Origin: Escherichia phage Av-05
Sequence record: KM190144
Reading direction: 5' to 3' (one strand)
Length of the DNA stretch: 64,000 bases
Position numbers and translations under genes: made by a program. The notes beneath the pieces are model-generated. The model was not told the origin of the DNA. It did not search any database and was given only the letters and a program-made list of their open reading frames with translations. Numbering within the stretch: the first letter of the stretch is position 1; every line of letters starts with the position of its first letter. Below are positions 2,222 through 63,242 of the stretch, piece by piece.

Positions 2222-3283
2222 TTAATCATTCATCTTATCCCAGCACATTTGTTGCGCTGTCATCAAAACATCGGCAGCAAAGTTAAGATCTGTTGTCTTC
2301 GGTAAATGCGTGTTCTTGTACAGAGTGTTACGAATATAATCATCCTTCTCTTCTGCCCAAGCCAAGAGCTTCTCCAAAGACCATGCACCATTCCTGATTG
2401 CAAGAAGCTCCTGAGCATCAGGTCTTTTTACTAAGACTTTACCTTCTGCTAAGATCTCCTCAGCCATACGCATCAATCTTACCAAATGGAGGGCATGTTT
2501 GCAATCGTACCCGTACTTTTCTTCTAACTCATGCCGGACCGGATTTCTGTTTTCAACCCATGCCCAGTAGTTCTTATGCTTTTCCTTCGCTTGTTTATGG
2601 TCATCTGCCAGATATTTAACGATTAAAATTGGCTTACGTTTCTTATCCTCGTCAGAGAACTGCTCGTATGGAACTTTACGAATAGAACCATCAGAGTTAA
2701 ACAAACCAGCGTTGTCATGTGTACCAATCACACCATAGATATTATCACCCATCGGCAAAAAGACACACAACTTATTAAGGTCATCCAGCATTTTCTGGAA
2801 GTCTTTATGTTTTGTAAGATTATCATCCATCCACGAGTGTGTCAAGCGCATGAACTCTTTTTGTGTTGGTTGCTCTTTAGGTTGCGGGTTATTAATCCAT
2901 TTATTATGGCCTTTGATACGCTTAAGTTGCGCCATCGCGTACCCAGAAAATGTAAAAGCAACTTTGCTTGATAGAAGTTTTGGCGCTTGCTCGCGTAGGT
3001 ACTCGTAAACATCTGAAGTTTGCAGAATGTCACCTCTATCAACAAACATAAGCTCGATAATGTTTGGGTTCATATCAACGAACAGCTTCATATAGTTTGT
3101 TAGCTCATACAGCTTACCATCCTCTTCATCAATAAGAGTCATCTCCCTGTCAACGAAAAATGGGGTAAGAATGCTTTTAGGCTCTGCACAATAAATTCCG
3201 CGAATATCCACATCGGATGTTGGCAAGTTAGTTCCATAGGCAATACTGCCGGAGTAACAACGCATTAGTTCTAGTTTCTTCAT
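2222..3283 (-). CDS. Pol-beta superfamily nucleotidyltransferase
   Basis: N-terminal GSIAYGTNLPTSDVDIRG (GS...hG[ST]...SDxD minimal NTase motif); 353 aa. Confidence 0.5.
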   Translation of the reverse strand: MKKLELMRCYSGSIAYGTNLPTSDVDIRGIYCAEPKSILTPFFVDREMTLIDEEDGKLYELTNYMKLFVDMNPNIIELMFVDRGDILQTSDVYEYLREQAPKLLSSKVAFTFSGYAMAQLKRIKGHNKWINNPQPKEQPTQKEFMRLTHSWMDDNLTKHKDFQKMLDDLNKLCVFLPMGDNIYGVIGTHDNAGLFNSDGSIRKVPYEQFSDEDKKRKPILIVKYLADDHKQAKEKHKNYWAWVENRNPVRHELEEKYGYDCKHALHLVRLMRMAEEILAEGKVLVKRPDAQELLAIRNGAWSLEKLLAWAEEKDDYIRNTLYKNTHLPKTTDLNFAADVLMTAQQMCWDKMND

Positions 3284-3642
3284 TGTTGTACCTTTTTGTC
3301 TTTTCTTGCATTATCCCAAAAATTAAGGATATTTTGGTAACGGATTTTGTCTTCCATATATTCAGCTTCATCACGAAGACCACATACATGGTCTATTAAG
3401 GCACATACTTCATTATGGTATTCTGTGCCACTCGTGATGTGTTTAATCATACAAGATCCTGCTTTCCATTTCGAGAGGGAGTATCTCAGATTATCATCTT
3501 TTTCTGTGGGGAAAGCATCAACAAGCACCTTTGCTCTATTCCCTTGTATCGTTTGCACTGTTCCTCGGCGCAGTTCGTTATTACCCCAATAGATAAATAC
3601 TGTATCGCCAACAAATAATCTTGTTCCGCTTGCATCCCTCAT
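3280..3642 (-). CDS. Hypothetical protein
   Basis: ORF in track (3280-3660); GGGGG RBS before ATG at 3642. Confidence 0.4.
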   Translation of the reverse strand: MRDASGTRLFVGDTVFIYWGNNELRRGTVQTIQGNRAKVLVDAFPTEKDDNLRYSLSKWKAGSCMIKHITSGTEYHNEVCALIDHVCGLRDEAEYMEDKIRYQNILNFWDNARKDKKVQQ

Positions 3643-3643
3643 T

Positions 3644-3988
3644 TTATGCCCCCAACACAAAGAAATAATGAACTGTTACCGCTGCAAAGTAAAGCGTTTT
3701 GGAAATCAATCGTAGCCAGCAATCTCTGTTTGTATACACTTTTCCTGCTAAGATATTACTCCCTGTTACGATATTTCCCCACAGCCACACAACAAACAAG
3801 AATGCTCCGAGCAAACCACTTGTCGGTGGTGTTAATGTAGTAATCATCGCAATACCTTCGAGGGTGGCGAATATGAAGAAGTATGGAAATGCCTCCCTTA
3901 CACATTTTATTCCTTTGCCAGTAATGCAGGTATTAACTAAACCTATAAGACAAAATATCGTCCAAAGCACATACAATGTATAAACCAT
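3644..3988 (-). CDS. Membrane protein
   Basis: 114 aa, multiple hydrophobic segments. Confidence 0.4.
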   Translation of the reverse strand: MVYTLYVLWTIFCLIGLVNTCITGKGIKCVREAFPYFFIFATLEGIAMITTLTPPTSGLLGAFLFVVWLWGNIVTGSNILAGKVYTNRDCWLRLISKTLYFAAVTVHYFFVLGA

Positions 3989-4053
3989 AATCCACTTAAC
4001 CCCAAAAATGTTAACCTCTCCAAACCTATCAGAGAGGTTTCAAAAATAATCTA

Positions 4054-4551
4054 CTACTCACCTTTTAGCTTAAAACTTTTCAATGTTTTGATAAAGTCTT
4101 TCTCCGCTGGTGTGTAAGTGTGTACGAAACCTGTCTCTTCGCAGGTGTAGGTATCATTAACCTCCATTGCGTGTGGAGGGATAAATGCACCATCAGGAAC
4201 AGACTTATATTCCGGGTTGTAGATAAATTCCGGCAGCACAACAGCTACAGCAGTCATTGCCCCATTCAAGGCTTTCTTTTCTTCACGCCACCAAGCCACA
4301 GGGTAGGTTTGTAAAGACATTGCCTGATCAAGAAAATCTTCAAGCACGGACTGATAACCACCATTCAAAACAATAATGGTCTTATCTTCTTCTTTCCAGC
4401 ATTTCAGCCAATGGTGTGCAGTGATCTGCTCTGGTGTATATGCTTCACCACTATGCAAAACCATAAGCTCTGCAATGGCGTGTGCTGATTGGATACCTGC
4501 ATGGATACCGCAGATATACTGGTTAACAATACAATACATTCTTGTTTTCAT
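4054..4551 (-). CDS. PTH2-like (peptidyl-tRNA hydrolase 2 family) domain protein
   Basis: GIHAGIQSAHAIA and W..W...DKTIIVLNG resemble PTH2 core motifs (GKGKxAAQCSHAA; KVVLK); by-eye only. Confidence 0.35.
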   Translation of the reverse strand: MKTRMYCIVNQYICGIHAGIQSAHAIAELMVLHSGEAYTPEQITAHHWLKCWKEEDKTIIVLNGGYQSVLEDFLDQAMSLQTYPVAWWREEKKALNGAMTAVAVVLPEFIYNPEYKSVPDGAFIPPHAMEVNDTYTCEETGFVHTYTPAEKDFIKTLKSFKLKGE

Positions 4552-4766
4552 TTTTGTTTCTTCCTCAAAATTATCCGTTCAGGACTGAAAAATTCTTTCA
4601 AACACAGGAAGATGGCTAATGCGCCACCCAACCACCAAAAAGGTATCAACAGCAAAGCAGGTATTAAGTCCTCTCCTGTGATACAATCCTGTGTTTTATA
4701 GGTCATGGTAAGAAATACACCTGCTGCTACTATCCCAGCAACCACATACAAGATCAGTTCAATCAT
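4548..4766 (-). CDS. Small membrane protein
   Basis: 72 aa, two hydrophobic helices. Confidence 0.4.
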   Translation of the reverse strand: MIELILYVVAGIVAAGVFLTMTYKTQDCITGEDLIPALLLIPFWWLGGALAIFLCLKEFFSPERIILRKKQK

Positions 4767-5079
4767 TATCCCGTTTCTCCAGAAACGCTTTCACCGCAAG
4801 AGCCGCAGCGTAAATTGCCACAAGACAAATACAAAATGTGAAAATAATAGGTAAAACCATTACCGCAAACATCATAAACAGTGGTCCTGCAACAGTAACG
4901 AATGCTGTTCCAAGCAACAATAGAAATACCACATATTTATCTGCCGTCTCATCCACCTTCTTAAGATACACACCTAAACACACAGAAGACAACAGGAATG
5001 ACAGAATGGACAGCAATAGATACCAATTATCAATAAAGATGATAATTGGACCAGCAACATTTTCTAGCCACCACATCAT
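4759..5079 (-). CDS. Membrane protein
   Basis: 106 aa, strongly hydrophobic. Confidence 0.4.
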   Translation of the reverse strand: MMWWLENVAGPIIIFIDNWYLLLSILSFLLSSVCLGVYLKKVDETADKYVVFLLLLGTAFVTVAGPLFMMFAVMVLPIIFTFCICLVAIYAAALAVKAFLEKRDND

Positions 5080-5093
5080 ATATACTTACCTCT

Positions 5094-6350
5094 TTAGAAT
5101 AACATATCTCTGCTGATTGCTTTACGAATAGCATCAATACGGGCTACTCGCACAGCCTCACCAATCTCTTTACCCTTCTTACCTTTTTCCAGAAGGGGTT
5201 TTGTTATAGCTTTAGAATCAACTTTTGTCATAGCGTCGTAGGCTTCCAACAAAATATGACCCTGAGGATAAGGTTTATGTCTAAAATCACCACCTCTCCC
5301 TTTAGCATCACAATAACACGCATCTGCAAGTGTGTAAACCTTTATTTTCTGATCAGCTTGTCCAGCAGCTTCAAATATTTTCATGATGCTTTTTGGTTTC
5401 AAACCGTTGTTACCATCTTTGGGGGAGATGGCGTGCACTTTTGTGTGATTTTCCGCAACATATTTTGCCGTGTCACGATAGATATTATAAATCTTCAACC
5501 TTTCACACAAGGATTGGATAACATCTACACCAGCTTTTTCATGACCATGAAGATTACCATTGTCCTTATGAGTCACAGCTTTGCCAAAATCATGGCACAG
5601 CACAGCAAACTTGGTCAGTGGATCAGCTCCTAATTCATCAGCAACCCGTAACGCTAGAATTGTATGGGTGTAAGCATCCCCTTCTGGGTGATGTTCTTTA
5701 GGTTGTTGCACACCACGTAGGGCTTCCAGTTCAGGGAGTTCGCCAATACGTCCCATATTGACAGCAAAAGATCTGAAATAACCACTCTTTAAGGCTTTCA
5801 ACATTTCCTTCCATTTACGCTCGGCGCTTATTTCTGCCAAAGAGTGTCGGTTGTCATAAGCCAGTTTAAAAGTTTCTGGATGGATATGCCATTCTTCCCC
5901 AAGCTGGGCTTTAAATCTAAACAGGCGTAGAATACGTAATGGATCTTCAATAAATGCCTGTGATGTATGACGTAATGTTTTAAGTCCTAAGTCAACCTGA
6001 CCACCAAAAGGATCTATAATTTCACCACTCTCAACATCCATCGCCATGGAATTGATGGTTAGGTCTCTACGTGCCAAATCCTCTTCCAGAGTTACATCTG
6101 GACTAAAGCATACCTCAAATCCTTTATGGCCTTCACCTGTTTTTCTTTCTGTGCGTGCAAGAGCGTACTCTTCTCTTGTTTCTGGGTGAAGATAAACTGG
6201 AAAAGATGCGCCAACTTGTGTGAACCCTCTTTTCAACATCTCTTCATGCGTAGCACCAACAACCACATAATCACGGTCTGATATTTCACGACCTAACAAT
6301 TTATCTCTTACTGCGCCACCTACCAAGTATACCTTCATTTCTTCGCCCAC
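5094..6350 (-). CDS. cca: tRNA nucleotidyltransferase (CCA-adding enzyme) with HD domain
   Basis: MKVYLVGGAVRDKLLG...DRD head motif, RRDLTINS, HD motif HHPEGDAYTHT...CHDFGK; probable ATG at 6338 (track GTG 6350). Confidence 0.8.
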   Translation of the reverse strand: MGEEMKVYLVGGAVRDKLLGREISDRDYVVVGATHEEMLKRGFTQVGASFPVYLHPETREEYALARTERKTGEGHKGFEVCFSPDVTLEEDLARRDLTINSMAMDVESGEIIDPFGGQVDLGLKTLRHTSQAFIEDPLRILRLFRFKAQLGEEWHIHPETFKLAYDNRHSLAEISAERKWKEMLKALKSGYFRSFAVNMGRIGELPELEALRGVQQPKEHHPEGDAYTHTILALRVADELGADPLTKFAVLCHDFGKAVTHKDNGNLHGHEKAGVDVIQSLCERLKIYNIYRDTAKYVAENHTKVHAISPKDGNNGLKPKSIMKIFEAAGQADQKIKVYTLADACYCDAKGRGGDFRHKPYPQGHILLEAYDAMTKVDSKAITKPLLEKGKKGKEIGEAVRVARIDAIRKAISRDMLF

Positions 6351-6661
6351 GTATTCATATAATTAACAATATCTTTTACGGCTCTCTTTCCGTCTAGTGG
6401 ATAAACTATGTCATCGCTCATCCCACCGTGTTTTAGCATTGCTACCAGTCTAGTATATACCTCTTTTGGTCTTTTGCAAGTTCTTTTCTTCCATTTATGA
6501 CCGTCTGGGGAGTACTCCTTATCTTCAAGAGAGATATGAAGTATATCCCCTATAAACTCTTTAGCCTGTGTGCTGTAAAGTGGACGGTGGAATATGTAGA
6601 ATTTCATTGCTTGCTCCTTTGTTGTAATAACAATATCAGTGCAAGCCACCTGTGTCAACAC
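6335..6661 (-). CDS. Hypothetical protein
   Basis: ORF in track; overlaps cca start (coupled). Confidence 0.4.
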   Translation of the reverse strand: MLTQVACTDIVITTKEQAMKFYIFHRPLYSTQAKEFIGDILHISLEDKEYSPDGHKWKKRTCKRPKEVYTRLVAMLKHGGMSDDIVYPLDGKRAVKDIVNYMNTWAKK

Positions 6662-6696
6662 ATAAAGAAAAACCCGCTAAAAAGCGGGTTAATCTC

Positions 6697-6978: not shown

Positions 6979-7489
6979 CTTTACCTCTTAAAAAATAGAA
7001 AGGCTTCAAATTAAGGGTGTTCTTTTTGTCCCACACATACCATGCATACCCGCTTCCATCTGTCTTACCATCATCTGTAAAAGATGGTCTTTGAGAAAGT
7101 ACAAGCAGAGATGTTGGAGGATTATCTTGCCACCACTCCCACCTTTTCATACTTTCAAGAAAACCAAGGCGTAGAAGCATGATAACGACATCAGCGTCAC
7201 GTAGAGCTTTCTCAACAAATTCCTGAGCCAGTGAGTATGGAGGGTTAGAGATTATGATGTCTGTGTGATTATACTCTGTTGCCAGATAATCAACACCTTG
7301 ACGTATTTCTCCCCAAGCACTTCCGATTGGTAGAAAATTATAAATCCTACCGGAAGCCCTGCACGGCTCCATATATTTCTTTTTCATATCTATGGGGATG
7401 ACTTCCAACAGGGCTTCAACAGCCCATACTGGGGTTTCATACGTATCGTATTCTCTCCGCTCACTCTTCCTTTTCAGGGGCGCTACCAT
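6809..7489 (-). CDS. Dam-like DNA N6-adenine methyltransferase (small phage type); 3' end probably artefactually extended
   Basis: DIIISNPPYS catalytic motif; removing one T from the T6 run at 6990-6995 gives a 166-aa protein ending ...KPFYF directly before the RBS of the next gene. Confidence 0.6.
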   Translation of the reverse strand: MVAPLKRKSERREYDTYETPVWAVEALLEVIPIDMKKKYMEPCRASGRIYNFLPIGSAWGEIRQGVDYLATEYNHTDIIISNPPYSLAQEFVEKALRDADVVIMLLRLGFLESMKRWEWWQDNPPTSLLVLSQRPSFTDDGKTDGSGYAWYVWDKKNTLNLKPFYFLRGKDGKCRQQNERDSEQVEKGHPKISGGTVRPDSKRDQPVCKERSIWNGYVTTVPGGNG

Positions 7490-8415
7490 CAGTTATTCAC
7501 CTTTTCCATAGCCTCTTTCAAAAGATCTTCTGAGACACCAAGAATCTGATTTAACAAAACGTCCCGCTTATGTGGTATTGTGCGTGTTTCACTTTCACCA
7601 TATCGTAGGCTATTCAGTTGCACAAGGATTCCTTTTAACTCCTCAACATTAAAACCGTCAAAATCACGTTCATTGAGTGTTAGCATATTGAAACTGAAAT
7701 TTTCACCCCCAATCGCTATATTTAGAGGCACTTCCTGTAGTTCATCTTCAGAAACAATATCTATATTTTGCAGTGCTACACTCTTCGACTTTGCAGGTTT
7801 TGTCGTTTTCGGTCCTGTTATATACTTCAGCCCTTGTTGCTCTCTTCGGATATTCTCTTTATCCAGTAAAGCGGCTTCTGTGCGTACCAAAATATCTTCT
7901 TCTGTCAGCCAAACTTCCCCACCACCTTTAATGGTTTCCATTTCTTCAGGTGTTAGCACATCTTTATAGAAATAATCGAAGACACGATCAAAGTAGTCTT
8001 TTTGGAACACAGCTTGGCGGTAAATATTGGATCCGTCTCCACCTATCCAACCCTGGTAGTTATGGAACATAAAAATTGTCAATGGTGAAACAGTTCTCCG
8101 CTCACATGCCAACCATAATACTGTTCCTGCTGAACACACTTGGCCTTCTGCATGAACAATAACCATGGCCTGACTTTCTCTGATGGCGCTAACGTATGCC
8201 ATAGCAATAGCAACATCCCCACCCAATGTATTTATAATAATGCGTACCGTATCCTCTGGGTTGGCTGCACGAATTGTTTGTAACCGCTCTTGGTGGTCTT
8301 CCAACCAATGCATCTCGTTAACGTACACGACATGATTATTGGCATAGGCACGATATGTGAAAACATTAGAAGTCTCTACACGGTTAATATCAAATCCGTT
8401 ATTCAGTTTTTGCAT
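7489..8415 (-). CDS. ClpP-like (S14 family) serine peptidase
   Basis: INTLGGDV...GQVCSAGTVLWLA...MFHNYQGW matches ClpP core with Ser and His motifs; extra N- and C-terminal extensions. Confidence 0.5.
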   Translation of the reverse strand: MQKLNNGFDINRVETSNVFTYRAYANNHVVYVNEMHWLEDHQERLQTIRAANPEDTVRIIINTLGGDVAIAMAYVSAIRESQAMVIVHAEGQVCSAGTVLWLACERRTVSPLTIFMFHNYQGWIGGDGSNIYRQAVFQKDYFDRVFDYFYKDVLTPEEMETIKGGGEVWLTEEDILVRTEAALLDKENIRREQQGLKYITGPKTTKPAKSKSVALQNIDIVSEDELQEVPLNIAIGGENFSFNMLTLNERDFDGFNVEELKGILVQLNSLRYGESETRTIPHKRDVLLNQILGVSEDLLKEAMEKVNN

Positions 8416-9211: not shown

Positions 9212-9728
9212 AAGAATCCTCCATTTTGTCCAGGAATGTTTCCAGGAGTTTTATTCTTTCTGGTGTGTTAAGATTAAGTGTTTTAATCCCTTTCATCTTA
9301 GCAAGATTGACAGCAGTAGCCGTGCCGCCTCTTGGATTGCCATTCTTATCTTCTTTTGCAAAGTAGAGCACAAAGGAAGATGGCTTTGGGTTGTTAATAT
9401 TCACTCCCAACACTTGATGCACATTCCTAGAATGCAACGCAAATGCTGATCTGTTTCTCAACAATGCTTGTGGGTTTGGATGCACCTTTTGCACCAACTC
9501 ATCTCGATATTCTATTTGGTCGATATATAGATGGTTAATATATTGTAAGGCATAATCCCAGTTATCGTACAAACCCACTTCTTTATCACCAAAACCTTTC
9601 CATGGTATGTAGATTTCTGCGAGTCTGTTACCATACAACATTTTGGTTTTATCGTCAAGGCCATCGAAATATCGCTGCATCCCTCTCTGGAACGCTGCAT
9701 CGGCTCCTTCTGCCTTACCGCTCCGCAA
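9183..9728 (-). CDS. Hypothetical protein
   Basis: TTG start; weak DprA/SLOG-like resemblance (GKAEGADAA, RNRSA) not relied on. Confidence 0.35.
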   Translation of the reverse strand: MRSGKAEGADAAFQRGMQRYFDGLDDKTKMLYGNRLAEIYIPWKGFGDKEVGLYDNWDYALQYINHLYIDQIEYRDELVQKVHPNPQALLRNRSAFALHSRNVHQVLGVNINNPKPSSFVLYFAKEDKNGNPRGGTATAVNLAKMKGIKTLNLNTPERIKLLETFLDKMEDSFAKVPRQTQ

Positions 9729-9762
9729 TGTAAACCCTATTTTTTTTTCAAGGAGTTAAGCA

Positions 9763-11013
9763 ATGACAGCAACAACAGGTGTTGGTGGTTTAATTTATGG
9801 TCGTGCATTGGTTGATCAGAGGACAGGAAAGAAAATAAATTTTGATGAACTGGGCGGCGGGAATATTCCAGAAGACATAACAGATCTTATTGCATCTAAA
9901 GCCCCAATAGAAAGCCCTTCATTTACAGGAAACCCCCAAGCACCAACACCGTTGGATGATGCTATTGGAAAGGAAATAGCTAATGTAGAATATGTGAGGG
10001 GTTTAATTGCAAAATTGGCTGACTCAGCGCCTGAAACATTAGATACTCTCAATGAATTAGCGAAGGCATTAGGTGATGACCCTAACTTTGCGACAACCAT
10101 AACTAACGCTCTTGCTGGTAAACAACCATTGAGTGAAATACTGACATCTTTGTCAGGATTGATTACTGCCGGAAATAAACTAGCTTATTTCAGTGACAAA
10201 AACGTAATGGCTTTGGCAAATCTCTCCGCTGTTGGTCGAGTTATTATAGGGCAAGACTCAAAAACTGGGGTTCTTGATTATCTGGGGATAAAAACCGCCG
10301 CTACAAAAGATGTACAAAACGATATCTATGATGCCACCGATGGGGTAGTATCTTTGCCTGGTGCATTTGGTTTTGGGGCGTTTATCCCTGCCGAGAAAGA
10401 AGTTGTTTTTCAAGAGAAGAATGGGCCAGAGGAATGGGTTTCTTGGTTGAGAAGTGCACAACCTGGTCGTTACCTTGTTCGCCAAGATTTACCTTCAGGT
10501 GGTATACGTATTATTGAAGGGATCACATTTAGAGGTATGGTTGAGGTATTGTCCCTATTTCCAGCGGAGAGTGCGGAACAGGCATCTAAAAATAACAAAT
10601 ATGCTTATTTTTATGGTATAAATGGGGAGTTATACTCTTATCGCTTACTGACTATTTTTGCCAGTGGTGACTGGGTGAATATAAAAGGACAATTCTCTTC
10701 TTTACAGTCTACGGTAGACAATTCATGGGGGAGTCCTGATGTTGGAGGAATAATGTTAGGAGTGTATCTTGGCGCTTCGGACACTGATTCAAACAGAAAA
10801 CTTGTTCGTGGTCAGACTATCCCAGGATCCCGCATAGGGTGTATAACTCTTTACAGCAATGTTTCCGCAACAGGTGCATATCAAAGTACACCAGTTTCTG
10901 TTACACACAGTAATGAAACACAGAGAGGCACGTTTGTAGCCTTATCTGGCTCACCAAGCAACAGCGGTGGTACAGCCACAGGTTACATAGGTCTTTTTAT
11001 GAGGATTGCATAA
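9763..11013 (+). CDS. Tail fibre protein
   Basis: SPSFTGNPQAPTP tail-fibre anchor motif; AAGGAG RBS; N-terminus MTATTGVGGLIYGRALVD. Confidence 0.6.
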   Translation: MTATTGVGGLIYGRALVDQRTGKKINFDELGGGNIPEDITDLIASKAPIESPSFTGNPQAPTPLDDAIGKEIANVEYVRGLIAKLADSAPETLDTLNELAKALGDDPNFATTITNALAGKQPLSEILTSLSGLITAGNKLAYFSDKNVMALANLSAVGRVIIGQDSKTGVLDYLGIKTAATKDVQNDIYDATDGVVSLPGAFGFGAFIPAEKEVVFQEKNGPEEWVSWLRSAQPGRYLVRQDLPSGGIRIIEGITFRGMVEVLSLFPAESAEQASKNNKYAYFYGINGELYSYRLLTIFASGDWVNIKGQFSSLQSTVDNSWGSPDVGGIMLGVYLGASDTDSNRKLVRGQTIPGSRIGCITLYSNVSATGAYQSTPVSVTHSNETQRGTFVALSGSPSNSGGTATGYIGLFMRIA

Positions 11014-11582
11014 TGCTGGATATTAAAGATATTAAGTCCCCGCAGTATCTTCTTAATGGTGACGTTGATTGCCTCGTCCTTTTTGAGGGTTTCTCTGATT
11101 ATCTCCCATACACCGCTTCCAGTAACGACTGTAGCGAAACAGGAAAGGCAGTTTGGGATTCCTTACAATCTGGTAATTTTGGGGAGATTGCCCCGTATGT
11201 AGTAAACCCTCAATTTATCGAGGCATTAAAGCAACAGATGTTATCAGAAATAAAAGAGTGGAGAAAACTGGAAGAAAGCTCTACGGCTATTGTTTCTTAT
11301 AATGGTGCAAGGTATGATGTTGATAATGCAACCCTTGGTCGTATTTATCCAGTATTATTAGCACAAAAAGCATCCCCAGCCAGACAAGCTGTGGTTTGGA
11401 GAGATGTTGATAACAAACCTGTAGAGATGAGTAGCTCTGAATTTGAAAATCTTGTTGTAGCTATGTCTTCCGAGTTGGCAACTAAGAATGATTCAATATA
11501 CATCAAGCAACGAGAAATGAAAGATCAAGTGCTTTCAGCCTCTACGATTGAGGAATTACAAAGGATAAAAATTGGGTGGTAG
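11013..11582 (+). CDS. Putative tail fibre assembly/accessory protein
   Basis: Start overlaps fibre stop (ATGA); position between fibre genes. Confidence 0.3.
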   Translation: MLDIKDIKSPQYLLNGDVDCLVLFEGFSDYLPYTASSNDCSETGKAVWDSLQSGNFGEIAPYVVNPQFIEALKQQMLSEIKEWRKLEESSTAIVSYNGARYDVDNATLGRIYPVLLAQKASPARQAVVWRDVDNKPVEMSSSEFENLVVAMSSELATKNDSIYIKQREMKDQVLSASTIEELQRIKIGW

Positions 11583-13222
11583 CTATGGATTATAAGGATA
11601 AAGTTGTCAATGCTGAAGTCATACTTCCAGATGGGCATAGTATTGGAGGATCAGGACTCCCAAGCCAATCTTTTAAATTATACACAGAAGACACCGCGAC
11701 CATAAAACTTTCAGGTAATGGTGAAAAAGCAACACCACTTAAAGGTGTTGTTGTGGTGGCAGAAGATGAAAATAATGCTCTCCAAGCTGGAGATAATGGG
11801 TTAGCTGTTAAGGTGAGTCCTGCTGCAAATAACCTGCTGGAGTTGAAGCAAGGAGCATTATATGTAACAGCACCAGAGATAAATATTCCAATTTCTCCTA
11901 AAGAAGGAAACGCTTTAACAAATATAACCTCTGAAGGGGAAGAGGGGTTGTATGTTGCGCCTACCAAAGTGCAAGGATGGCTTTATGATTCTGCACCTGG
12001 TGTTGCAGCTTTGCCTGGCGCTTTCGGCTACGGAATGACAGATCCTGGAGCAATTTCACTTATTGCTAACAGTCTTGGCGATGTTGCACGTTCTGCCCAT
12101 AACCTACACCCAGGAAGGTATTATACTTTCACCACACGATCTGAGGAAATGACCGGAATAACAGAAATTATCTGGTTGGATAATGGCTGGGGCAACAAAA
12201 CCAGTCAGACAGCAACAAAGCTGGTTCTGTTTTTTGGAAAAGACGGTCGTATGAAGTATACAATCCGTGGCGACAATCTAAGCGATCCGGCAGTGTGGTA
12301 TGATTTGTTAACTACTAAGCAAACAGATATCTATGATCGTACAGAAGGTGTTGTCGCCATACCTGGCATGTTTGGATTCGGTAGTGATTTCGTCGGTATT
12401 GATACTGTCTATTTTAACAACAAAGCGGAGTTCCTTACTTGGGTGCATAATACTCGTTCTGGTCGTTATCTGGTGAGCCAGATATATGGTAGCGAGCCTA
12501 TCATTAACAGCAATGTTACGTTTAGCGGTATTCTTGAGGTTATCCCAACTGGTAGTGTTGGCGTTGGTTACGAGGAGAATTTACCTAACGTATGGAAAAA
12601 CCTTATTTTTTACGGCGCTAATTACGGCGATATCTGGTACACACGTTTTACCACACAACCGAATAACTTGTCTGGTTGGAGGTGCTTAGATAAGACAACG
12701 GATATAATCAATTTGCAGAACTCGCTTAATAGAAAAGCTCCATTGTACAACCCTAATTTCTCTGGTACACCAACAGTACCTACACCAAGCGATTCAGCAT
12801 CAGGAACCCAGATTGCCAACGTAGATTTTGTTAAAAAACAGGTATCTAATAACACTTACACACTGTCTGCTGGCACGGTTACTGTTTTAGATAGTGGATC
12901 ACAACCTACTATTGAGATAACTGGTCAATCACCATCACAGGTTTTAAATTTGGGAATACCAAAAGCACCTGATGGACAAACAATAAAATCTGTCAATGCT
13001 GTTGTTAAAGAAATAGACAGCGCACAACAGGTTACACTAACTTTTACAATGACAGATGATTCAAGTCAACAGGCGAGCTTTAATATCCCGTTTTCTCCTC
13101 AGCCGACTATGAAGCTGTCAGCAACATCTGGGAATTTCTCTTTCAATTATGGCGATACACCTTCAGCGGAAAAACGCAGCGGGAAGATCTGGGTCTTCTA
13201 TATATTTGAAAACAACAGTTGA
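11576..13222 (+). CDS. Tail fibre protein, N-terminal part (frame-shifted relative to 13149-13553)
   Basis: PNFSGTPTVPTPSDSASGTQIANVDFV fibre motif; stop at 13220 inside overlap with next frame. Confidence 0.55.
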   Translation: MVAMDYKDKVVNAEVILPDGHSIGGSGLPSQSFKLYTEDTATIKLSGNGEKATPLKGVVVVAEDENNALQAGDNGLAVKVSPAANNLLELKQGALYVTAPEINIPISPKEGNALTNITSEGEEGLYVAPTKVQGWLYDSAPGVAALPGAFGYGMTDPGAISLIANSLGDVARSAHNLHPGRYYTFTTRSEEMTGITEIIWLDNGWGNKTSQTATKLVLFFGKDGRMKYTIRGDNLSDPAVWYDLLTTKQTDIYDRTEGVVAIPGMFGFGSDFVGIDTVYFNNKAEFLTWVHNTRSGRYLVSQIYGSEPIINSNVTFSGILEVIPTGSVGVGYEENLPNVWKNLIFYGANYGDIWYTRFTTQPNNLSGWRCLDKTTDIINLQNSLNRKAPLYNPNFSGTPTVPTPSDSASGTQIANVDFVKKQVSNNTYTLSAGTVTVLDSGSQPTIEITGQSPSQVLNLGIPKAPDGQTIKSVNAVVKEIDSAQQVTLTFTMTDDSSQQASFNIPFSPQPTMKLSATSGNFSFNYGDTPSAEKRSGKIWVFYIFENNS

Positions 13223-55686: not shown

Positions 55687-56991
55687 CTACTTACCAGGGA
55701 AAGTCTCTTCATAAAACTTAACAAGACGTTGATCAACGATAATATCTTTATCCCTGATCCTACGTAATAACCTTAATCCTTTTGCACTTGTTGCTCTGCT
55801 AAAAGCCACGTATGCCATGCCCGGTGCAAAAGTCCCATTGCCAAAGTCAACATTAACTTCCGGTAATGTTAATCCTTGTGCTTTGTGTATTGTAACAGCC
55901 CACCCAAGACGAATCGGTAAAGCCCTGTACTCACCAATGATAATCTTCTCAATTTCTTCAGTTATTGTACCATCTGGGTTTTTCACCTTTATGGGGTTAT
56001 ACTCAACATTTTCCCACACATAAGGTTCTACGTCAACAATATCCCCATTTTCAAGACGGACTCTAACACTGTACCTACGTAGTTCAACAATCTCTCCACG
56101 GGAACCATTCACATAGCTTGGTTCATTTAGTCCTTTAGGGTCATTGACAGTAATCATCACCTGCGCCCCCTCTTTCAGATACAACTCTTCCGGTACAGGT
56201 GTCTGGTTAAATTGCCCTGTCTTTTTTGCCTTGTAAACTGTTGGGATTCCAGGTATTGCATCAAAACGTTTTTTGTTTATTTTGTCTGCTGCCGCGTTTG
56301 TTGAGGTTATTGTTATAGCATCCAAGGGTTTTCCCATGTTGTAGCAATAAGTATTCATAAACTCAACAATCTCTGGAATACGCTCTCCCTTGCGAAGGCA
56401 ATTAAGAAGTGTTGAAAAATGAACACTACTTTGCCTGTATATTTTATCAAGAAATACAGGATATGGGTTCAATTCTTTCCATGTTTTAGAAAAGCAACAA
56501 AGTTCTGTGTCGTGGAACTGGTAGTAGATCTCTTTTTCTTCACCTTTCAAAACAGGTGGATTCTGTAAGAAATCCCCGAACATGCACACCTGCAAACCAC
56601 CGAAAGGCTCTTTAGGTTTTTTACGTGCCAGACGACATTTCATGTCCATTTCCCAAAGTTTGTCTGCCCTGAACATACTTATCTCTTCAATAATAAGAAT
56701 CTTCAGTGCTTTACTTTTAAGCAACTTCTTAGCCTTTGCCTTTATCTCTTCTGCATCTTTTTTAGTGGACACGCCTAATGAAAGTCCGAAAGCTCTGTGT
56801 GCCGTCATACCATCCACATTAATGGCAGCAGCCCCTGTAGGGGCCACTGTCAAGACTGAACCTGCGTATAAGGATTGGATAGTTTTTATGGTATGGCTCT
56901 TTCCAGCACCTGCATAACCACTGATAAACACATTTTCACCGGACATTATAGCGCCAAGAGCATCTTCAACGCCAACCCCGTATTGAGACAT
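55687..56991 (-). CDS. Dda/RecD-like SF1 DNA helicase
   Basis: Walker A ISGYAGAGKS, VLTVAPTGAAA, Walker B IIEEISM, TIHKAQGLT and AYVAFSRA motifs. Confidence 0.7.
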   Translation of the reverse strand: MSQYGVGVEDALGAIMSGENVFISGYAGAGKSHTIKTIQSLYAGSVLTVAPTGAAAINVDGMTAHRAFGLSLGVSTKKDAEEIKAKAKKLLKSKALKILIIEEISMFRADKLWEMDMKCRLARKKPKEPFGGLQVCMFGDFLQNPPVLKGEEKEIYYQFHDTELCCFSKTWKELNPYPVFLDKIYRQSSVHFSTLLNCLRKGERIPEIVEFMNTYCYNMGKPLDAITITSTNAAADKINKKRFDAIPGIPTVYKAKKTGQFNQTPVPEELYLKEGAQVMITVNDPKGLNEPSYVNGSRGEIVELRRYSVRVRLENGDIVDVEPYVWENVEYNPIKVKNPDGTITEEIEKIIIGEYRALPIRLGWAVTIHKAQGLTLPEVNVDFGNGTFAPGMAYVAFSRATSAKGLRLLRRIRDKDIIVDQRLVKFYEETFPGK

Positions 56992-58004
56992 CAGTCCTCC
57001 TTAGATTCTTGTAGATAAATCTCTTCAAGAATTTTACCCTGTACACCAATGACAATAATATCTGGCGCACCTGCTGGTTTTGGTGTTCCTGTCAGAACTT
57101 CATAACGACAGCAACGGCATTTTTTCTGGTTATAGTCATAAGGGACACTGACAATATCTGCCGGATCCACAGATACTTCTACAAGTACCCTTGAAGTCTT
57201 CTCAAAGGTAGTGGCATAGTCAATAGATGCAACATGCAAACCTTGGCTACATGTTCTATTGGGATTATCCTCAACCATATTACGTGGCATGGAAATAACT
57301 TGCCCTTTATAATTAGGAACTTTACCTGTATGACAATCTCGTGGGCCATCTACAGTTATCTTAATTTTCTTGTATGCCTTAATATTTCCGTTTTCAAGGA
57401 TCTCAAGATCATTATGTTTTACAAAATCATAAAGCATTTTAACAGAAGCATACGACGGGTTGTGTAGCAACTTCTGCATGAATTTGACATATCGTTCGTC
57501 AAAGCAATCATTCTCAATATCTTTAATGATTCGTTTAGCAATACTGCTTTCCTGTTTTTGCCCGTGCCAATACAAAACACCATCTATCAATACTAAATTA
57601 TCACCAAAATCAATGGTCTTTTTCTTTTCTGCTTCTTTCTCTTCTAAAATACGTTGTACAGCAGCATCTATTCCTCCTGTCCAAAGGATAACACCAACTT
57701 CTTTGAAGATGGGGCTGCTACTATTTAGAGTATATTGTTCACCATTTAACAAAGTGATATGAATATTGTCTTGGGTAACAAGGACAATTGGTTGTGCAAG
57801 AGAATGCACTGGCTTCATAATACCTACAGGATCTTCCTTGGCCTTTTTGGTTGTCGGCATTCCTTTTTTGGGTGCAACTGTCCAGCGTTTAAGAACATTT
57901 AGACCACGATCAACAACCATCATATTATTTTTCTTAGCGTATTCACGAGCTTCACGACGTGACATGAATAAAGGATTACTCACCTTTTCCTCCTTTGCTG
58001 TCAA
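56991..58004 (-). CDS. rIIB: rIIB-like protein
   Basis: Immediately downstream of rIIA-like gene; C-terminal MPRNMVEDNPNRTCSQGLHV...DPADIVSVPYDYNQKKCRCCRYEV resembles rIIB conserved C-terminus as recalled. Confidence 0.45.
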   Translation of the reverse strand: MTAKEEKVSNPLFMSRREAREYAKKNNMMVVDRGLNVLKRWTVAPKKGMPTTKKAKEDPVGIMKPVHSLAQPIVLVTQDNIHITLLNGEQYTLNSSSPIFKEVGVILWTGGIDAAVQRILEEKEAEKKKTIDFGDNLVLIDGVLYWHGQKQESSIAKRIIKDIENDCFDERYVKFMQKLLHNPSYASVKMLYDFVKHNDLEILENGNIKAYKKIKITVDGPRDCHTGKVPNYKGQVISMPRNMVEDNPNRTCSQGLHVASIDYATTFEKTSRVLVEVSVDPADIVSVPYDYNQKKCRCCRYEVLTGTPKPAGAPDIIVIGVQGKILEEIYLQESKED

Positions 58005-59976
58005 TAAATTTACGATACTCTAGCATCTCTGGAGTATTGAAATGCCTAATATTAATGTATTTTAACAATGGGTAGCGATCTTTCTTAATTTGTAGCAGCT
58101 TTTTACCAATTCTCTTCTTGGCCTCTATCATCCATAATGCTTTCTCACGGCTATCTTCGTAGCCAGGAACTGAACAATAACTGGGCATGTTTACCTTCAT
58201 CTCCCATTTTGGGAAACTGGCTACCATCACACCAAAATAGCTAAGCTCTTTAACAATGTTATGATACTCATGATCTTTCCCCACTTCTTGATATAAATGA
58301 TATTCAAGAAGGTTAGTTTTTGCAAGAGCATGAATATCCTCCTCAGTTATAACCCGTGCCTCATCTGGCAGCCAACTTGATCTGTTTAAAGGCACAATGT
58401 ATAACTTACCTGCCACACCAAGATGTTTAAGAAATGTTGGTGGTTGCTTTCTCCAAGTTGTTCTAAGATTGGAAACGTATCCTAACGGGCATAATCCTTT
58501 CACCTGCCCACCCCAGTAGACCATAGCCGCCTCAATATCTTCAAATTGAGCACGGGAAATACGGGTTACATCTACGGAGCCATCTTGGTTGATTATCCAA
58601 ACTTTATGACCCGGTTCGTAATAACCATAGCCACCATACTTTTTATCTGCTTTTTGCACTGGTCGTTTTTCAAGTTCAGATAACTTGAAAATCATCCCTT
58701 CAAAGAATTTATCACTGTATAAGGACAGAGCGTAATCAGCATCGGTTATAAACGATCTCTTACCGAACTTCTCTGCAAGCCAGTTACATTTAGAACGCAC
58801 ATACTTGCGATCATCATTGTAAACCAGTGGATGACCATTCATCAACTCTGCGTATGAATAACGCTCATCCTTACCACGGCGTGAGCCTTCGCCACCATAT
58901 GTTTCACAGTAATCTATGTAAGAACCATCAGTATAATTCTTGAATTTATTTGCAATAAAAGCAGCACCGTATTTTGTGGCGAAGTAACCGCCAATAAACT
59001 TCATATGATCAAGGACTGCTTTTAAAGTTGGCAGATCGCTTAATTCTTTTGTGATTTCTTCTCCGCGAAGTCGGATAGCTTTCGTCACAAAACTTTCAAG
59101 TTTATCACGGAATCCTCCGTCATTCTTTCCTTCTACTGTCCATTCTCGGCCTGGGTCTACATTACAATCCCCAATAGGGATAGATACCGTCATCATGGGC
59201 AGTTCTTTACGAGTCGAGAGATAATCAGAAAGATATGGTTGCTGACCCATGATAACAACACTATCCGCGTTTCTTGAAATGCTACTATACATCTCAAGAA
59301 CCCAGCCAGTCTCCTCATCCTCATAACGATACTGAACAGGATAAGTGCGATCTTCAATCTGAGTTTTAACAAAAGGATCGTTAATGATATATGGAAATTT
59401 AGCATAGCGAAGGCATTTTACAATAGCCAGCCGATAAGCTCCTGTTTCCCAAGTGTTTACGTTAAATTTAACCTCTACACCATTCTCCTCTGTTGTTTCA
59501 CAAGAGAATAAAGGCACAACCTCTGGGATTCCACTGTTTTTATGGACAGAGTATGTTGTTTTCACTCCATCTTTAACAGAAATAACTGTGAACATATCTG
59601 TTACTGCAAGAGGCGCTTTTGACCCAATACCTTTCGCGCCAATCAGATCATTACTGTTTCTTTTTGTGGACTCACCAATCATCATGAATGTACGTGTTAC
59701 CATCTCATGATCCATACCTAACCCTGTATCCTTAACAGAATACCAAGGTTCCAAGTCTGTTGGTGAGTGGATGATGATGGGTTTGTCAGAACACCCTGCC
59801 TCTGTGTGAGCATCTACAGCGTTGAAGAGAGGCTCTCGTACTGCTGCTAAAGGTTTATCTTTATAAATTCCATCGATAAGAATACTGAAAGTCTCAGGAT
59901 TCATTGCAATTGATGCTTGGTATCTTTCTACGTTCCCAGTTACCTGAACTTTGTTGTCAGATCTTTGAATAATCAT
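57976..59976 (-). CDS. rIIA: rIIA-like protein (N-terminal GHKL ATPase-like domain)
   Basis: N-box AVREPLFNAVDAH, G1 VKDTGLGM, G2 GAKGIGSKA. Confidence 0.55.
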   Translation of the reverse strand: MIIQRSDNKVQVTGNVERYQASIAMNPETFSILIDGIYKDKPLAAVREPLFNAVDAHTEAGCSDKPIIIHSPTDLEPWYSVKDTGLGMDHEMVTRTFMMIGESTKRNSNDLIGAKGIGSKAPLAVTDMFTVISVKDGVKTTYSVHKNSGIPEVVPLFSCETTEENGVEVKFNVNTWETGAYRLAIVKCLRYAKFPYIINDPFVKTQIEDRTYPVQYRYEDEETGWVLEMYSSISRNADSVVIMGQQPYLSDYLSTRKELPMMTVSIPIGDCNVDPGREWTVEGKNDGGFRDKLESFVTKAIRLRGEEITKELSDLPTLKAVLDHMKFIGGYFATKYGAAFIANKFKNYTDGSYIDYCETYGGEGSRRGKDERYSYAELMNGHPLVYNDDRKYVRSKCNWLAEKFGKRSFITDADYALSLYSDKFFEGMIFKLSELEKRPVQKADKKYGGYGYYEPGHKVWIINQDGSVDVTRISRAQFEDIEAAMVYWGGQVKGLCPLGYVSNLRTTWRKQPPTFLKHLGVAGKLYIVPLNRSSWLPDEARVITEEDIHALAKTNLLEYHLYQEVGKDHEYHNIVKELSYFGVMVASFPKWEMKVNMPSYCSVPGYEDSREKALWMIEAKKRIGKKLLQIKKDRYPLLKYINIRHFNTPEMLEYRKFIDSKGGKGE

Positions 59977-60901: not shown

Positions 60902-61070
60902 TTTGTTTCTCTTTAACAATATGTGCTTTCTGAACAGAGTATACAAATGTTTTATTGTCTTCAATAAACTCTCTGCCCTGTTCTTCATTCTCAAAAATAA
61001 TTGTGTCACACTTTGCCTTTAACATACCACGTTCTACAGTTGTGTGTGTCGTAGAAACAATTAAAGCCAT
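60885..61070 (-). CDS. Small hypothetical protein
   Basis: ORF in track, 61 aa. Confidence 0.35.
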   Translation of the reverse strand: MALIVSTTHTTVERGMLKAKCDTIIFENEEQGREFIEDNKTFVYSVQKAHIVKEKQNNDYN

Positions 61071-62110
61071 TAAGACACCTCGTTAAGTTGTTCCATGTAC
61101 CAGCTACGGGCTTTATTTGTTGTAAATTTTGCCACGTCTTTCATAGAAAGAGAATTGGCTTCTAGCACATCAGCTTCTTCTTTGTTGATATCTCGGTTAA
61201 CCCATGCGATAAATGCCCCCAGAGATGCGATGTCCAATCCAATCTCTTGCAAACCTTGTTGCAAGCGGTTCTCGGTGACTGCATACTCCACAAAATCTTT
61301 GATAGATTGCAGTTTCACAGGATCAACAAAGGCTAGGGTTTTCACTTTAGAGACAGAATGTTTTTGCCCTTTCACTTTAAACCAAAGTGCAGAAACATGT
61401 GCCAAGTGGCGATCTTTAGGTGTCCATACCACACCCTCACCAACACCAGATACACCAAAATATTTACCTACTGGGCACTCTTTTTCCACACCTTCGGTGA
61501 TCTGTGCAATTTCTGATTGCACTGTCTCTGGCATGTTAAAAGGAATATCCAGTTCCCACTTACCAAAAGTTAAAATATTATAAATGCGTTGTTCTGGTAA
61601 TCCAATGCCAAGAATATCGTCTAAAGCTAACCATTTTCGATGGTCATTCTCTTTTCCTACTGCCACACGGAAAATAGTAAAGAAAGGCATGATTTCAGAT
61701 ACCGCAACACCTTTCTGGATACCTTTTCCTGAAAATTCTCCAGCAATTTCTACTGGGAACTTAAATTCAATACCCCGATCTTCGCAGAGTTGCTTAACTT
61801 GCTCCAACAGGAGCTTATGGTCCTTTTCAACCATAAAGGCCATAAACCCATAATTGTCTTCTTCCAAAGACAAAACGCGTTCTTTGGACTGGTATACAAC
61901 CTCATCTTCAGAATTAAAGACTACACGGCAATTAGTCCCGTGAATTTTAACTGTTCCCACATAAGGAATGAGATATTGGTCTGGAGAGGCAACCTTACGC
62001 TTTATATTGCCATTCTCATCACGACCATCATAGGTTAAACGATCATGAATCGCTCGGATAACATTGCGAAATTGGCTAGTGCTTGGATACTTAGTTACTT
62101 GCATTATCAT
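61070..62110 (-). CDS. RNA ligase (T4 Rnl2-like)
   Basis: Motif I KIHGTN, motif III-like GEFSGKGIQKGV, motif IV EGVVW, motif V WFKVKG. Confidence 0.6.
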   Translation of the reverse strand: MIMQVTKYPSTSQFRNVIRAIHDRLTYDGRDENGNIKRKVASPDQYLIPYVGTVKIHGTNCRVVFNSEDEVVYQSKERVLSLEEDNYGFMAFMVEKDHKLLLEQVKQLCEDRGIEFKFPVEIAGEFSGKGIQKGVAVSEIMPFFTIFRVAVGKENDHRKWLALDDILGIGLPEQRIYNILTFGKWELDIPFNMPETVQSEIAQITEGVEKECPVGKYFGVSGVGEGVVWTPKDRHLAHVSALWFKVKGQKHSVSKVKTLAFVDPVKLQSIKDFVEYAVTENRLQQGLQEIGLDIASLGAFIAWVNRDINKEEADVLEANSLSMKDVAKFTTNKARSWYMEQLNEVS

Positions 62111-62477: not shown

Positions 62478-62677
62478 TGGCCCTCCACATCGTCAATATC
62501 TTCCATACCATCTTGCCACAGAACTTCATAGCAAGCGTCATAAATTGCGCTCATAGCATCTTTACGATCTAACACATCTACAATTTTTGGATCAATACTT
62601 TTAATTGCTTCCGCAATTTTATCGTAAGCAATATCAGGATGCATGTTCTTTTTTGCCATCTGGGATCTCCTCTTCAT
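62474..62677 (-). CDS. Small acidic hypothetical protein
   Basis: ORF in track, 67 aa. Confidence 0.35.
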   Translation of the reverse strand: MKRRSQMAKKNMHPDIAYDKIAEAIKSIDPKIVDVLDRKDAMSAIYDACYEVLWQDGMEDIDDVEGQ

Positions 62678-63242
62678 TTAAGACATAAATTGTCACATCA
62701 CAATCATGGAGAACAGATTCTATCATAGTTTCTATGATTTTCCAATCCCCACCTGCTAGTCCAGCACCTATTTTTGGCAGCCCGATCTTATAATCAGACA
62801 TAAAACCATCTGTGTGCCTTTGCAAACAATCTCGCATTGCTGCTAAGGAATCGTAAAGGGCGTTATAATTCAGATCCCTCACACCCATTCTACGCCCATT
62901 ATAACCGTATTGTGTGTACAGATTAAAACCAGCCAGTTTACCTTCGTTCATGACAACCCAAGTATAACTGCCCAGTTTTGTTCGATCACCTTTCTCTGTC
63001 TTTAAATCTTCAGCATACATTTTTGGGAATGCATTCTTTATTTCTTTAGCAATTCCAGACCCCATGGTGCAAAATGTATTACAACCATGAGCTATTACAT
63101 TAACATCCCTTTTAAGTGCTGCCTCTATTAAGCAACCAACTTTATACTTAAGCATTGTCTGATACCTCTTCGCATTCGTATGGATAGATATCCAGTCTTT
63201 TCCCATTCCATTCGCAAGAGTAACACTCAAGAAAACTACCAT
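62634..63242 (-). CDS. Macro-domain-like protein (ADP-ribose binding/processing fold)
   Basis: VNVIAHGCNTFCTMGSGIAKEI and KIGLPKIGAGLAGGDW resemble the two glycine-rich macro domain loops. Confidence 0.45.
   Translation of the reverse strand: MVVFLSVTLANGMGKDWISIHTNAKRYQTMLKYKVGCLIEAALKRDVNVIAHGCNTFCTMGSGIAKEIKNAFPKMYAEDLKTEKGDRTKLGSYTWVVMNEGKLAGFNLYTQYGYNGRRMGVRDLNYNALYDSLAAMRDCLQRHTDGFMSDYKIGLPKIGAGLAGGDWKIIETMIESVLHDCDVTIYVLNEEEIPDGKKEHAS

Follow-up and report, generated by a model that had tools for sequence, protein, structure and literature searches.

A putative three-enzyme cassette for tRNA 3'-end maintenance in Escherichia phage Av-05

A 64,000-nucleotide stretch of the genome of Escherichia phage Av-05 (sequence record KM190144; the whole stretch is hereafter called the window) carries, between positions 2222 and 6350, a group of minus-strand genes that probably constitutes a cassette for the maintenance or repair of tRNA 3' ends. 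The conserved core of this group consists of three predicted enzymes, namely a CCA-adding enzyme, a divergent protein with the fold of the PTH2 peptidyl-tRNA hydrolases (hereafter the PTH2-like protein), and a nucleotidyltransferase of the RlaP family, which would all act on the 3' ends of RNA, most likely tRNA. The three enzymes had been recognized, interleaved with three small membrane proteins, in an original prediction made from the sequence without database searches, and their presence on the minus strand at the positions given there was confirmed. Indeed, profile and structure searches placed all three in families that act on RNA or tRNA ends, or gave them the fold of such families, and not in unrelated ones. 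Their clustering also exceeds chance, as the same trio was found adjoining in phage lineages with unrelated flanks.

The closest record in the phage collection was Escherichia phage vB_EcoM_TH18 (Vequintavirinae), which shares ~90-95% nucleotide identity with the window. Eight minus-strand genes are packed in 2222-6661, with successive stops and starts that overlap or nearly abut. In the order of transcription, they encode a phrog_7526 protein, the CCA enzyme, proteins of 106 and 72 amino acids (aa), the PTH2-like protein, a 114-aa protein, a DUF7205 protein, and the nucleotidyltransferase. The genes would be co-transcribed from the minus strand within a long, tightly packed early/middle array. 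In the public records of many sequenced phages, these genes are annotated as 'tRNA nucleotidyltransferase', 'nucleotidyltransferase', or 'hydrolase'.

Judged by its sequence, the assignment of the CCA enzyme (5094-6338, minus strand) is unambiguous. Pfam, NCBIfam, and phrog models identified it as a class II CCA-adding/repair enzyme with head, neck, and a C-terminal HD phosphohydrolase domain. Its open reading frame (ORF) extends to a GTG at 6350, and the likelier start is the ATG at 6338, which gives a protein of 414 aa and overlaps the upstream stop as ATGA. The Pfam scores were 78.2 bits for PolyA_pol (PF01743), 35.3 for HD (PF01966), and 28.5 for PolyA_pol_RNAbd. Residues 5-412 are collinear with positions 1-404 of the 409 of NF008137 ('multifunctional CCA addition/repair protein'), a model matched with 424.5 bits, slightly under its equivalog cut-off of 451, and the match to phrog_2244 had an E value of 2.5e-144. 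This full-length NF008137 match, together with the HD match in Pfam, bears out the CCA-adding enzyme with an HD domain that had been predicted. The GGAVRD, DRD (DxD), RRD, and EDPLR (EDxxR) motifs align to those of B. stearothermophilus 1miv, and the records of relatives label the gene 'CCA tRNA nucleotidyltransferase'; it has already been mentioned in genome papers on related phages (e.g., PMC7344957). Models for PcnB and A-adding enzymes scored far lower (82 and 44 bits), which favours CCA addition over poly(A) or A-only addition.

The last gene of the array (2222-3283, minus strand) encodes a 353-aa nucleotidyltransferase of the Pol-beta superfamily, assigned to the RlaP family (PF10127) by Pfam and to phrog_388. 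It passed the Pfam RlaP threshold with 49.6 bits (cut-off 23) and matched phrog_388 ('nucleotidyltransferase') across its full length with an E value of 5e-77. The GS...SDVD motif, from which a Pol-beta-superfamily enzyme had been proposed, corresponds to G12, S13, S23, D24, and D26, which are invariant in 31 homologues; with this invariant catalytic signature and the Pfam threshold passed, the proposal held. Candidates for the third carboxylate, E54/D55 and E77, are also invariant in homologues. The family comprises 3157 homologues, and 119/120 among the matches listed are precomputed as PF10127, the single other one aligning to 57% of the query. A tblastn search from the nucleotidyltransferase reached nrdC.11 of the T4-like phage RB16, and the protein appears to be a distant homologue of T4 NrdC.11, itself assigned to RlaP (PMC12776372). 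According to the same preprint, two Pseudomonas RlaP enzymes add 1-2 untemplated nucleotides to an RNA 3'-OH, with a preference for damaged tRNA mimics (PMC12776372). Searches of PDB chain sequences with the nucleotidyltransferase returned no informative relative, NCBIfam had no match for it or for the PTH2-like protein, and PADLOC had none for any protein of the cassette.

The PTH2-like protein (165 aa; 4054-4551, minus strand) is identical to Av-05 YP_009111139.1, annotated 'hydrolase'. Its PTH2-like core spans residues 1 to ~110 and is followed by a 55-residue C-terminal extension specific to this clade. The protein misses the cut-off of Pfam PTH2 (PF01981), with 19.1 bits against 23; the same weak match was obtained for 31/60 diverse relatives, the best E value being 2.7e-4. 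Its AlphaFold model, built with 60 homologues, has a pLDDT of 94.5, and a Foldseek search with this model matched essentially PTH2 structures only, the top 12 hits all being PTH2 (E values from 5e-5). The profile-profile comparison of the family with five solved PTH2 sequences gave an E value of 2.3e-4 and 44% probability. In the joint alignment, five columns are invariant in both the PTH2-like family and PTH2 (Q21, H24, W52, G97, and T100), and a Q-x-x-H motif is common to the two. The predicted structure thus points to a PTH2 alpha/beta fold, while the sequence suggests a protein that stands outside PF01981 in the strict sense and has a remodelled active site. By analogy with PTH2, it may hydrolyse tRNA esters. 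When the protein alone was compared with PDB chain sequences, no informative relative was retrieved, and a match to IgA1 protease was discarded as a low-complexity repeat artefact. Of note, a 184-kb T4-like contig (L005; 7405-8649 and 14184-14618) encodes a 124-aa PTH2-like homologue between a DexA/Rv2179c-like 3'-5' exonuclease and DsbA; PhoH is encoded 7 kb upstream, and a phage-encoded SmpB, the partner of tmRNA, follows 6 kb downstream. The contig is another translation-rescue context for the PTH2-like family.

The case for a functional unit comes from gene neighbourhoods. Viral loci were collected around PTH2-like genes (53 loci) and around RlaP genes of the present subfamily (80 loci), and the proteins of the window served as queries against the ORFs of all six frames. 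A CCA gene was present within 10 kb in 19/53 PTH2-like loci and in 17/80 RlaP loci, often abutting RlaP. Vequintavirinae-like loci have the same gene arrangement as the window. In L021 (genome of Rheinheimera phage Barba19A), L026, L035, and L094, the CCA, PTH2-like, and RlaP genes follow one another in this order, contiguous and overlapping and without the membrane genes, and in L068 the CCA gene directly abuts RlaP. Of the 22-39 ORFs with 100 aa or more in the compact-cassette loci, only 3-6 have a homologue in the Av-05 lineage, and 2-4 of these matches lie inside the cassette. Because the flanks of the compact cassettes are nearly unrelated to the Av-05 lineage, the trio appears to have been kept or moved as a unit, and this is good evidence of functional coupling.

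Several observations weigh against a joint role in tRNA 3'-end maintenance. The association of the three genes is facultative, with no CCA gene nearby in 63/80 RlaP loci and 34/53 PTH2-like loci, and synteny within Vequintavirinae-like phages could be plain inheritance. The Pfam RlaP match is confined to the N-terminal 120 of the 353 residues of the nucleotidyltransferase, and the low specificity of RlaP for nucleoside triphosphates in vitro is a poor fit with the faithful restoration of one specific nucleotide. For S. solfataricus Pth2, Lys18, Asp86, and Thr90 are reportedly the catalytic residues (Fromant et al. 2005). Lys18 aligns with a nearly invariant His17 of the PTH2-like protein, and Thr90 has no conserved counterpart; Asp86 aligns with E89 or with the invariant E90, depending on the alignment, in a loop that is two residues shorter. 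In addition, PTH2 chains were not retrieved when the family profile was run against PDB sequences. The PTH2 assignment of the original prediction was therefore upheld for the fold, but the protein falls below the Pfam threshold, has His17 in place of Lys18, and is uncertain in activity. More generally, the substrates of all three proteins are predicted from homology and neighbourhood.

These genes might instead be independent auxiliary genes in an inherited early-gene region, with no joint pathway, the PTH2-like protein acting on or binding a non-tRNA substrate. The remodelled active site of this protein would fit such a view, as would the absence of CCA genes from most RlaP loci and the fact that the PTH2-like gene is often found alone or beside unrelated genes, such as those for the DexA-like exonuclease and DsbA in the T4-like contig. 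However, contiguous and overlapping trios in contigs with near-unrelated flanks are not expected from chance or from vertical inheritance of a whole region, and we consider independence quite improbable.

The three genes had also been linked to an RNA ligase at 61070 and, together with it, to the repair of tRNA 3' ends or anticodon loops. This ligase is real: the protein (346 aa; 61070-62110, minus strand) is an Rnl2-type ATP-dependent RNA ligase that matches PF09414 with 39.2 bits (cut-off 27) and is annotated 'RNA ligase 2' in relatives, its match to TIGR02307 (Rnl2; E = 4e-9) being below the cut-off. It is not physically linked to the cassette, however, as 55 kb separate the two in the window and 33-41 kb in complete relatives. 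In an anticodon-loop pathway, RlaP would refill lost nucleotides and Rnl2 would seal the loop, as a T4-like counter to PrrC or RloC, while the PTH2-like protein would free peptides from cleaved peptidyl-tRNA and the CCA gene would be an unrelated neighbour. The family indeed owes the name RlaP to an association with RNA ligases, and a tRNA missing one nucleotide of its anticodon loop can be aminoacylated again after the action of bacterial RlaP (PMC12776372; PMC7824862). RlaP and the ligase co-occur at the genome level in the Av-05 lineage, an Rnl2-type ligase being present in the window and in all Vequintavirinae-like relatives listed. Nevertheless, RlaP and the ligase are 33-55 kb apart in the Av-05 lineage, and 0/80 RlaP-centred loci have an Rnl2-type ligase within 10 kb (RtcB and Rnl1 were not searched for), versus 17 with a CCA enzyme. 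A T4-like heal-and-seal pathway for anticodon loops is not evident, because a search of the window for a polynucleotide kinase of the T4 type gave no match; this is weak evidence, as the T4 Pnkp query was approximate. TH18 has one marginal match to the kinase, outside the homologous region. Anticodon-loop repair therefore seems rather unlikely to be the role of this locus.

In the Av-05 lineage, the 'RNA-ligase-associated' nucleotidyltransferase is CCA-associated, and we infer that the distant Rnl2 ligase is part of the general RNA-repair repertoire of the phage, outside the cassette. The broader proposal that the phage invests in tRNA repair agrees with the family assignments, with published comparative genomics, and with RlaP biochemistry, but its anticodon-loop branch is not evident. 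Separately, a macro-domain protein is encoded 0.5 kb upstream of the ligase gene (62634-63242, minus strand; Pfam Macro, 23.5 bits). It is DarG-like according to PADLOC (E = 5e-11) and to the NCBIfam model antitoxin_DarG (E = 7e-10), and it could act in counter-defence by removing ADP-ribose (anti-DarT or similar) or in RNA-end processing.

ARAGORN and Rfam found no tRNA or other known RNA within the 64-kb window, in agreement with the original prediction. The conclusion drawn there, that the CCA enzyme may act on host tRNAs, did not follow: the Av-05 genome announcement reports 9 tRNAs (PMC4463512), and TH18 has 16 tRNA genes, which lie in a part of its genome that is not represented in the window. 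The Av-05 tRNAs are thus outside the window, and phage tRNAs are equally possible substrates. A tRNA cluster located just beyond the window and beside the cassette was ruled out, as it is ~25 kb away in TH18. All 16 TH18 tRNA genes encode CCA, and the role of the enzyme would therefore be repair and not synthesis. The same fact bears on the possibility that the cassette serves to mature the phage's own tRNAs, with the CCA enzyme and RlaP finishing precursor 3' ends and the PTH2-like protein supporting a high translational load. The tRNA complements of Av-05 and TH18 would suit this role, and large tRNA-rich phages often carry CCA enzymes (PMC7824862), but the 3' ends to be finished are already encoded in TH18, host Cca is available, and a tRNA gene was found within 10 kb in only 1/14 of the related cassette or RlaP loci scanned (the window itself excluded). 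We regard tRNA maturation as very unlikely. Given the gene neighbourhoods and the encoded CCA ends, all three alternatives become less likely.

In the 3'-end maintenance that we favour, the nucleotidyltransferase part of the CCA enzyme would rebuild missing C74, C75, and A76, and its HD domain, by homology with E. coli Cca, could clear 2',3'-cyclic or 3'/2' phosphates. The PTH2-like protein would cleave the ester of an aminoacyl, N-acyl-aminoacyl, or peptidyl group at A76, so that the 3' end could be reused or repaired. As a set, the three enzymes would keep host and phage tRNAs chargeable during infection and would reverse the trimming or blockage of 3' ends by host exonucleases, toxins, or immune nucleases. 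Counter-defence against PrrC, RloC, or VapC is plausible, as conjecture. Such a role is in line with a published inventory in which the phage kit for RNA repair and ribosome rescue comprises RlaP, RNA ligases, the CCA enzyme, and PTH2 (PMC7824862).

The cassette might go further and rebuild the whole tRNA 3' tail in a self-contained manner after tail-cleaving or tail-blocking defences such as Cas12a3, a task that would exceed the reach of a CCA enzyme by itself. The PTH2-like protein would then strip the acyl group, RlaP would re-add N73, the CCA enzyme would re-add C74, C75, and A76, and the HD domain would clean phosphorylated ends. We consider this extension unlikely; the sole evidence specific to it is that RlaP adjoins the CCA enzyme, and not a ligase, in several phage lineages. 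Further candidate tail-directed effectors are HepT-type HEPN toxins and the tail-modifying MenT, CapRel, and GNAT classes. Cleavage of the tRNA 3' tail is a documented immune strategy, as Cas12a3 removes the discriminator and CCA, and its authors describe viral resistance to tail cleavage as 'yet unknown' (PMC12851939).

The remaining genes of the array appear to be lineage-specific additions. Each of the three interleaved small membrane proteins of the original prediction has at least two hydrophobic segments, but none belongs to the conserved unit. The 106-aa protein (4759-5079, minus strand) has hydrophobic Kyte-Doolittle segments and a weak match to phrog_29214; it was found in Vequintavirinae-like loci only, and compact cassettes are without it. 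The 72-aa protein (4548-4766, minus strand) matches phrog_14512 ('membrane protein', E = 7e-32) and has hydrophobic segments at residues 1-23 and 33-57. The 114-aa protein (3644-3988, minus strand), which also has hydrophobic segments, matches phrog_16835 ('membrane protein', E = 2e-51) and was found in few related loci only. A seventh gene in 2222-6350, absent from the earlier list, encodes a 120-aa DUF7205 protein (3280-3642, minus strand) identical to Av-05 YP_009111137.1, in which a small beta-barrel of the SH3/Tudor/KOW-like type precedes a helical hairpin. The gene ends in an ATGA overlap with the start of RlaP, and its product may be an accessory of RlaP or a partner that binds RNA. Immediately upstream of the CCA gene, a small conserved protein (6335-6661, minus strand; likely start M19 at 6607) matches phrog_7526 over residues 19-108 (E = 1e-45) and was conserved in Vequintavirinae-like loci only. 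The membrane proteins thus fall outside the core and, like the DUF7205 and phrog_7526 proteins, are restricted to the Vequintavirinae-like lineage; the membrane proteins may have roles unrelated to the core.

Between the PTH2-like gene and the gene for the 114-aa membrane protein, the array has its one sizeable intergenic gap, of 65 nt, which holds a hairpin of 11 pairs (4013-4039, minus strand). This hairpin, a pattern match from a scan for terminator-like structures, is possibly an attenuator or a processing site. Just upstream of the cassette (6630-6690, minus strand), a terminator-like hairpin at 6690-6671 is followed at 6658-6630 by a sigma-70-like match (TTGACA, 17-nt spacer, TG-TATTGT). 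This match to the consensus is the best of the region, although promoter-like matches overall were not above the shuffled expectation in number, and the segment is a candidate for the start of the transcription unit that holds the cassette.

A few other features of these loci should be mentioned. In L035, a 95-kb viral contig, RlaP is apparently split into ORFs at 10396-10935 and 11564-12241, with ~630 nt between them, which may reflect an intron, a homing-endonuclease insertion, or a frameshift. The window encodes a 666-aa protein with a GHKL/HATPase_c_3 ATPase domain (57976-59976, minus strand), followed by a 337-aa protein without a Pfam match (56991-58004, minus strand), and homologues of both are also found upstream of the cassette in L035. 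A 308-aa protein with a ClpP-like serine protease domain (7489-8415, minus strand; PF00574, 41 bits) is encoded in the early/middle gene array, and its gene is conserved, with a Dam-like methyltransferase gene, upstream of the cassette in relatives. In TH18 (L002), a small protein encoded at 4250-4561, just past the right end of the window, is annotated guanosine-3',5'-bis(diphosphate) 3'-pyrophosphohydrolase and is small alarmone hydrolase-like. Small alarmone hydrolases can reverse the pyrophosphorylation of tRNA 3' ends by toxSAS/CapRel-type toxins, and the TH18 protein would fit the theme of tRNA-tail maintenance if such reversal holds.

It should also be noted that the window contains an unusual junction at 9739/9740 (within 9728-9763), where the homologue of TH18 position 107,833 is joined directly to that of TH18 58,383 in the opposite orientation. 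The junction removes ~88 nt from the 5' end of the TH18 peg170 homologue, the remaining ORF beginning with a TTG at 9728, and it sits 23 nt ahead of a tail-fibre gene start. Approximately 26 kb of TH18 past the junction are absent here, including genes for PhoH, endolysin, ribonucleotide reductases, thymidylate synthase, DNA ligase, and Sir2. The source record probably contains a misassembly or a deletion, because the Av-05 genome of 120.9 kb (120,938 bp) was assembled de novo from 36-nt reads and its relatives are 134-148 kb long (PMC4463512).

Bacterial immune systems and toxins often attack tRNAs, and the known phage answers are replacement tRNAs and the T4-style ligation of cut anticodon loops. 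If our reading is true, phages would have a third route in a portable three-gene set directed at the acceptor 3' end, and this set would be an obvious candidate for resistance to tRNA-tail cleavage. The concept is already known in outline (Iyer et al. 2021) and from an earlier study in which RlaP received its name (ref. 178 of PMC7824862). What is new is the recognition of a compact, portable CCA–PTH2-like–RlaP cassette, the linkage in these phages of RlaP to a CCA gene and not to a ligase gene, and the model-based identification of the 'hydrolase' as a protein with a divergent PTH2 fold whose active site has His in place of Lys. The annotation of Av-05 gains accordingly: the 'hydrolase' would become a divergent PTH2-fold protein and the 'nucleotidyltransferase' a member of the RlaP/NrdC.11 family, and the core is separated from the membrane genes.

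Each component can be compared with a known system. The CCA enzyme resembles E. coli Cca (NF008137/PRK10885) in its full-length collinearity, class II head motifs, and C-terminal HD domain, and, as in E. coli, CCA is already encoded in the tRNA genes of TH18, so that its role would likewise be repair. In contrast to E. coli Cca, it is phage-encoded and scores under the equivalog cut-off, and its CCA specificity and HD phosphoesterase activity are predictions. The PTH2-like protein differs from members of PF01981 such as S. solfataricus 1xty, P. horikoshii 1wn2, and human PTRH2/Bit1 (1q7s) by its score below the cut-off, the Lys-to-His replacement, and a Glu as the acidic residue in a shorter loop, and its family has invariants of its own (Y6, N10, Y12, K57, T58, G64, G65, and N96). 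With bacterial RlaP (P. fluorescens and P. aeruginosa) and T4 NrdC.11, the nucleotidyltransferase shares a score above the Pfam threshold, the hG[GS]...DxD signature, and the combination of a nucleotidyltransferase domain with a long C-terminal domain, and the Av-05 genome also carries an RNA ligase. Pfam aligns only its N-terminal third, however, the activity of the phage subfamily is predicted from homology, and the gene adjoins the CCA enzyme, and not a ligase, here and in several other phages. Finally, the tRNA repair system of phage T4 (Pnkp and Rnl1 against PrrC) is, like the Av-05 cassette, a phage-encoded answer to tRNA damage, and T4 also has RlaP (NrdC.11) and Rnl2; unlike T4, the Av-05 window yielded no Pnkp-like gene, and its cassette points to the acceptor 3' end.

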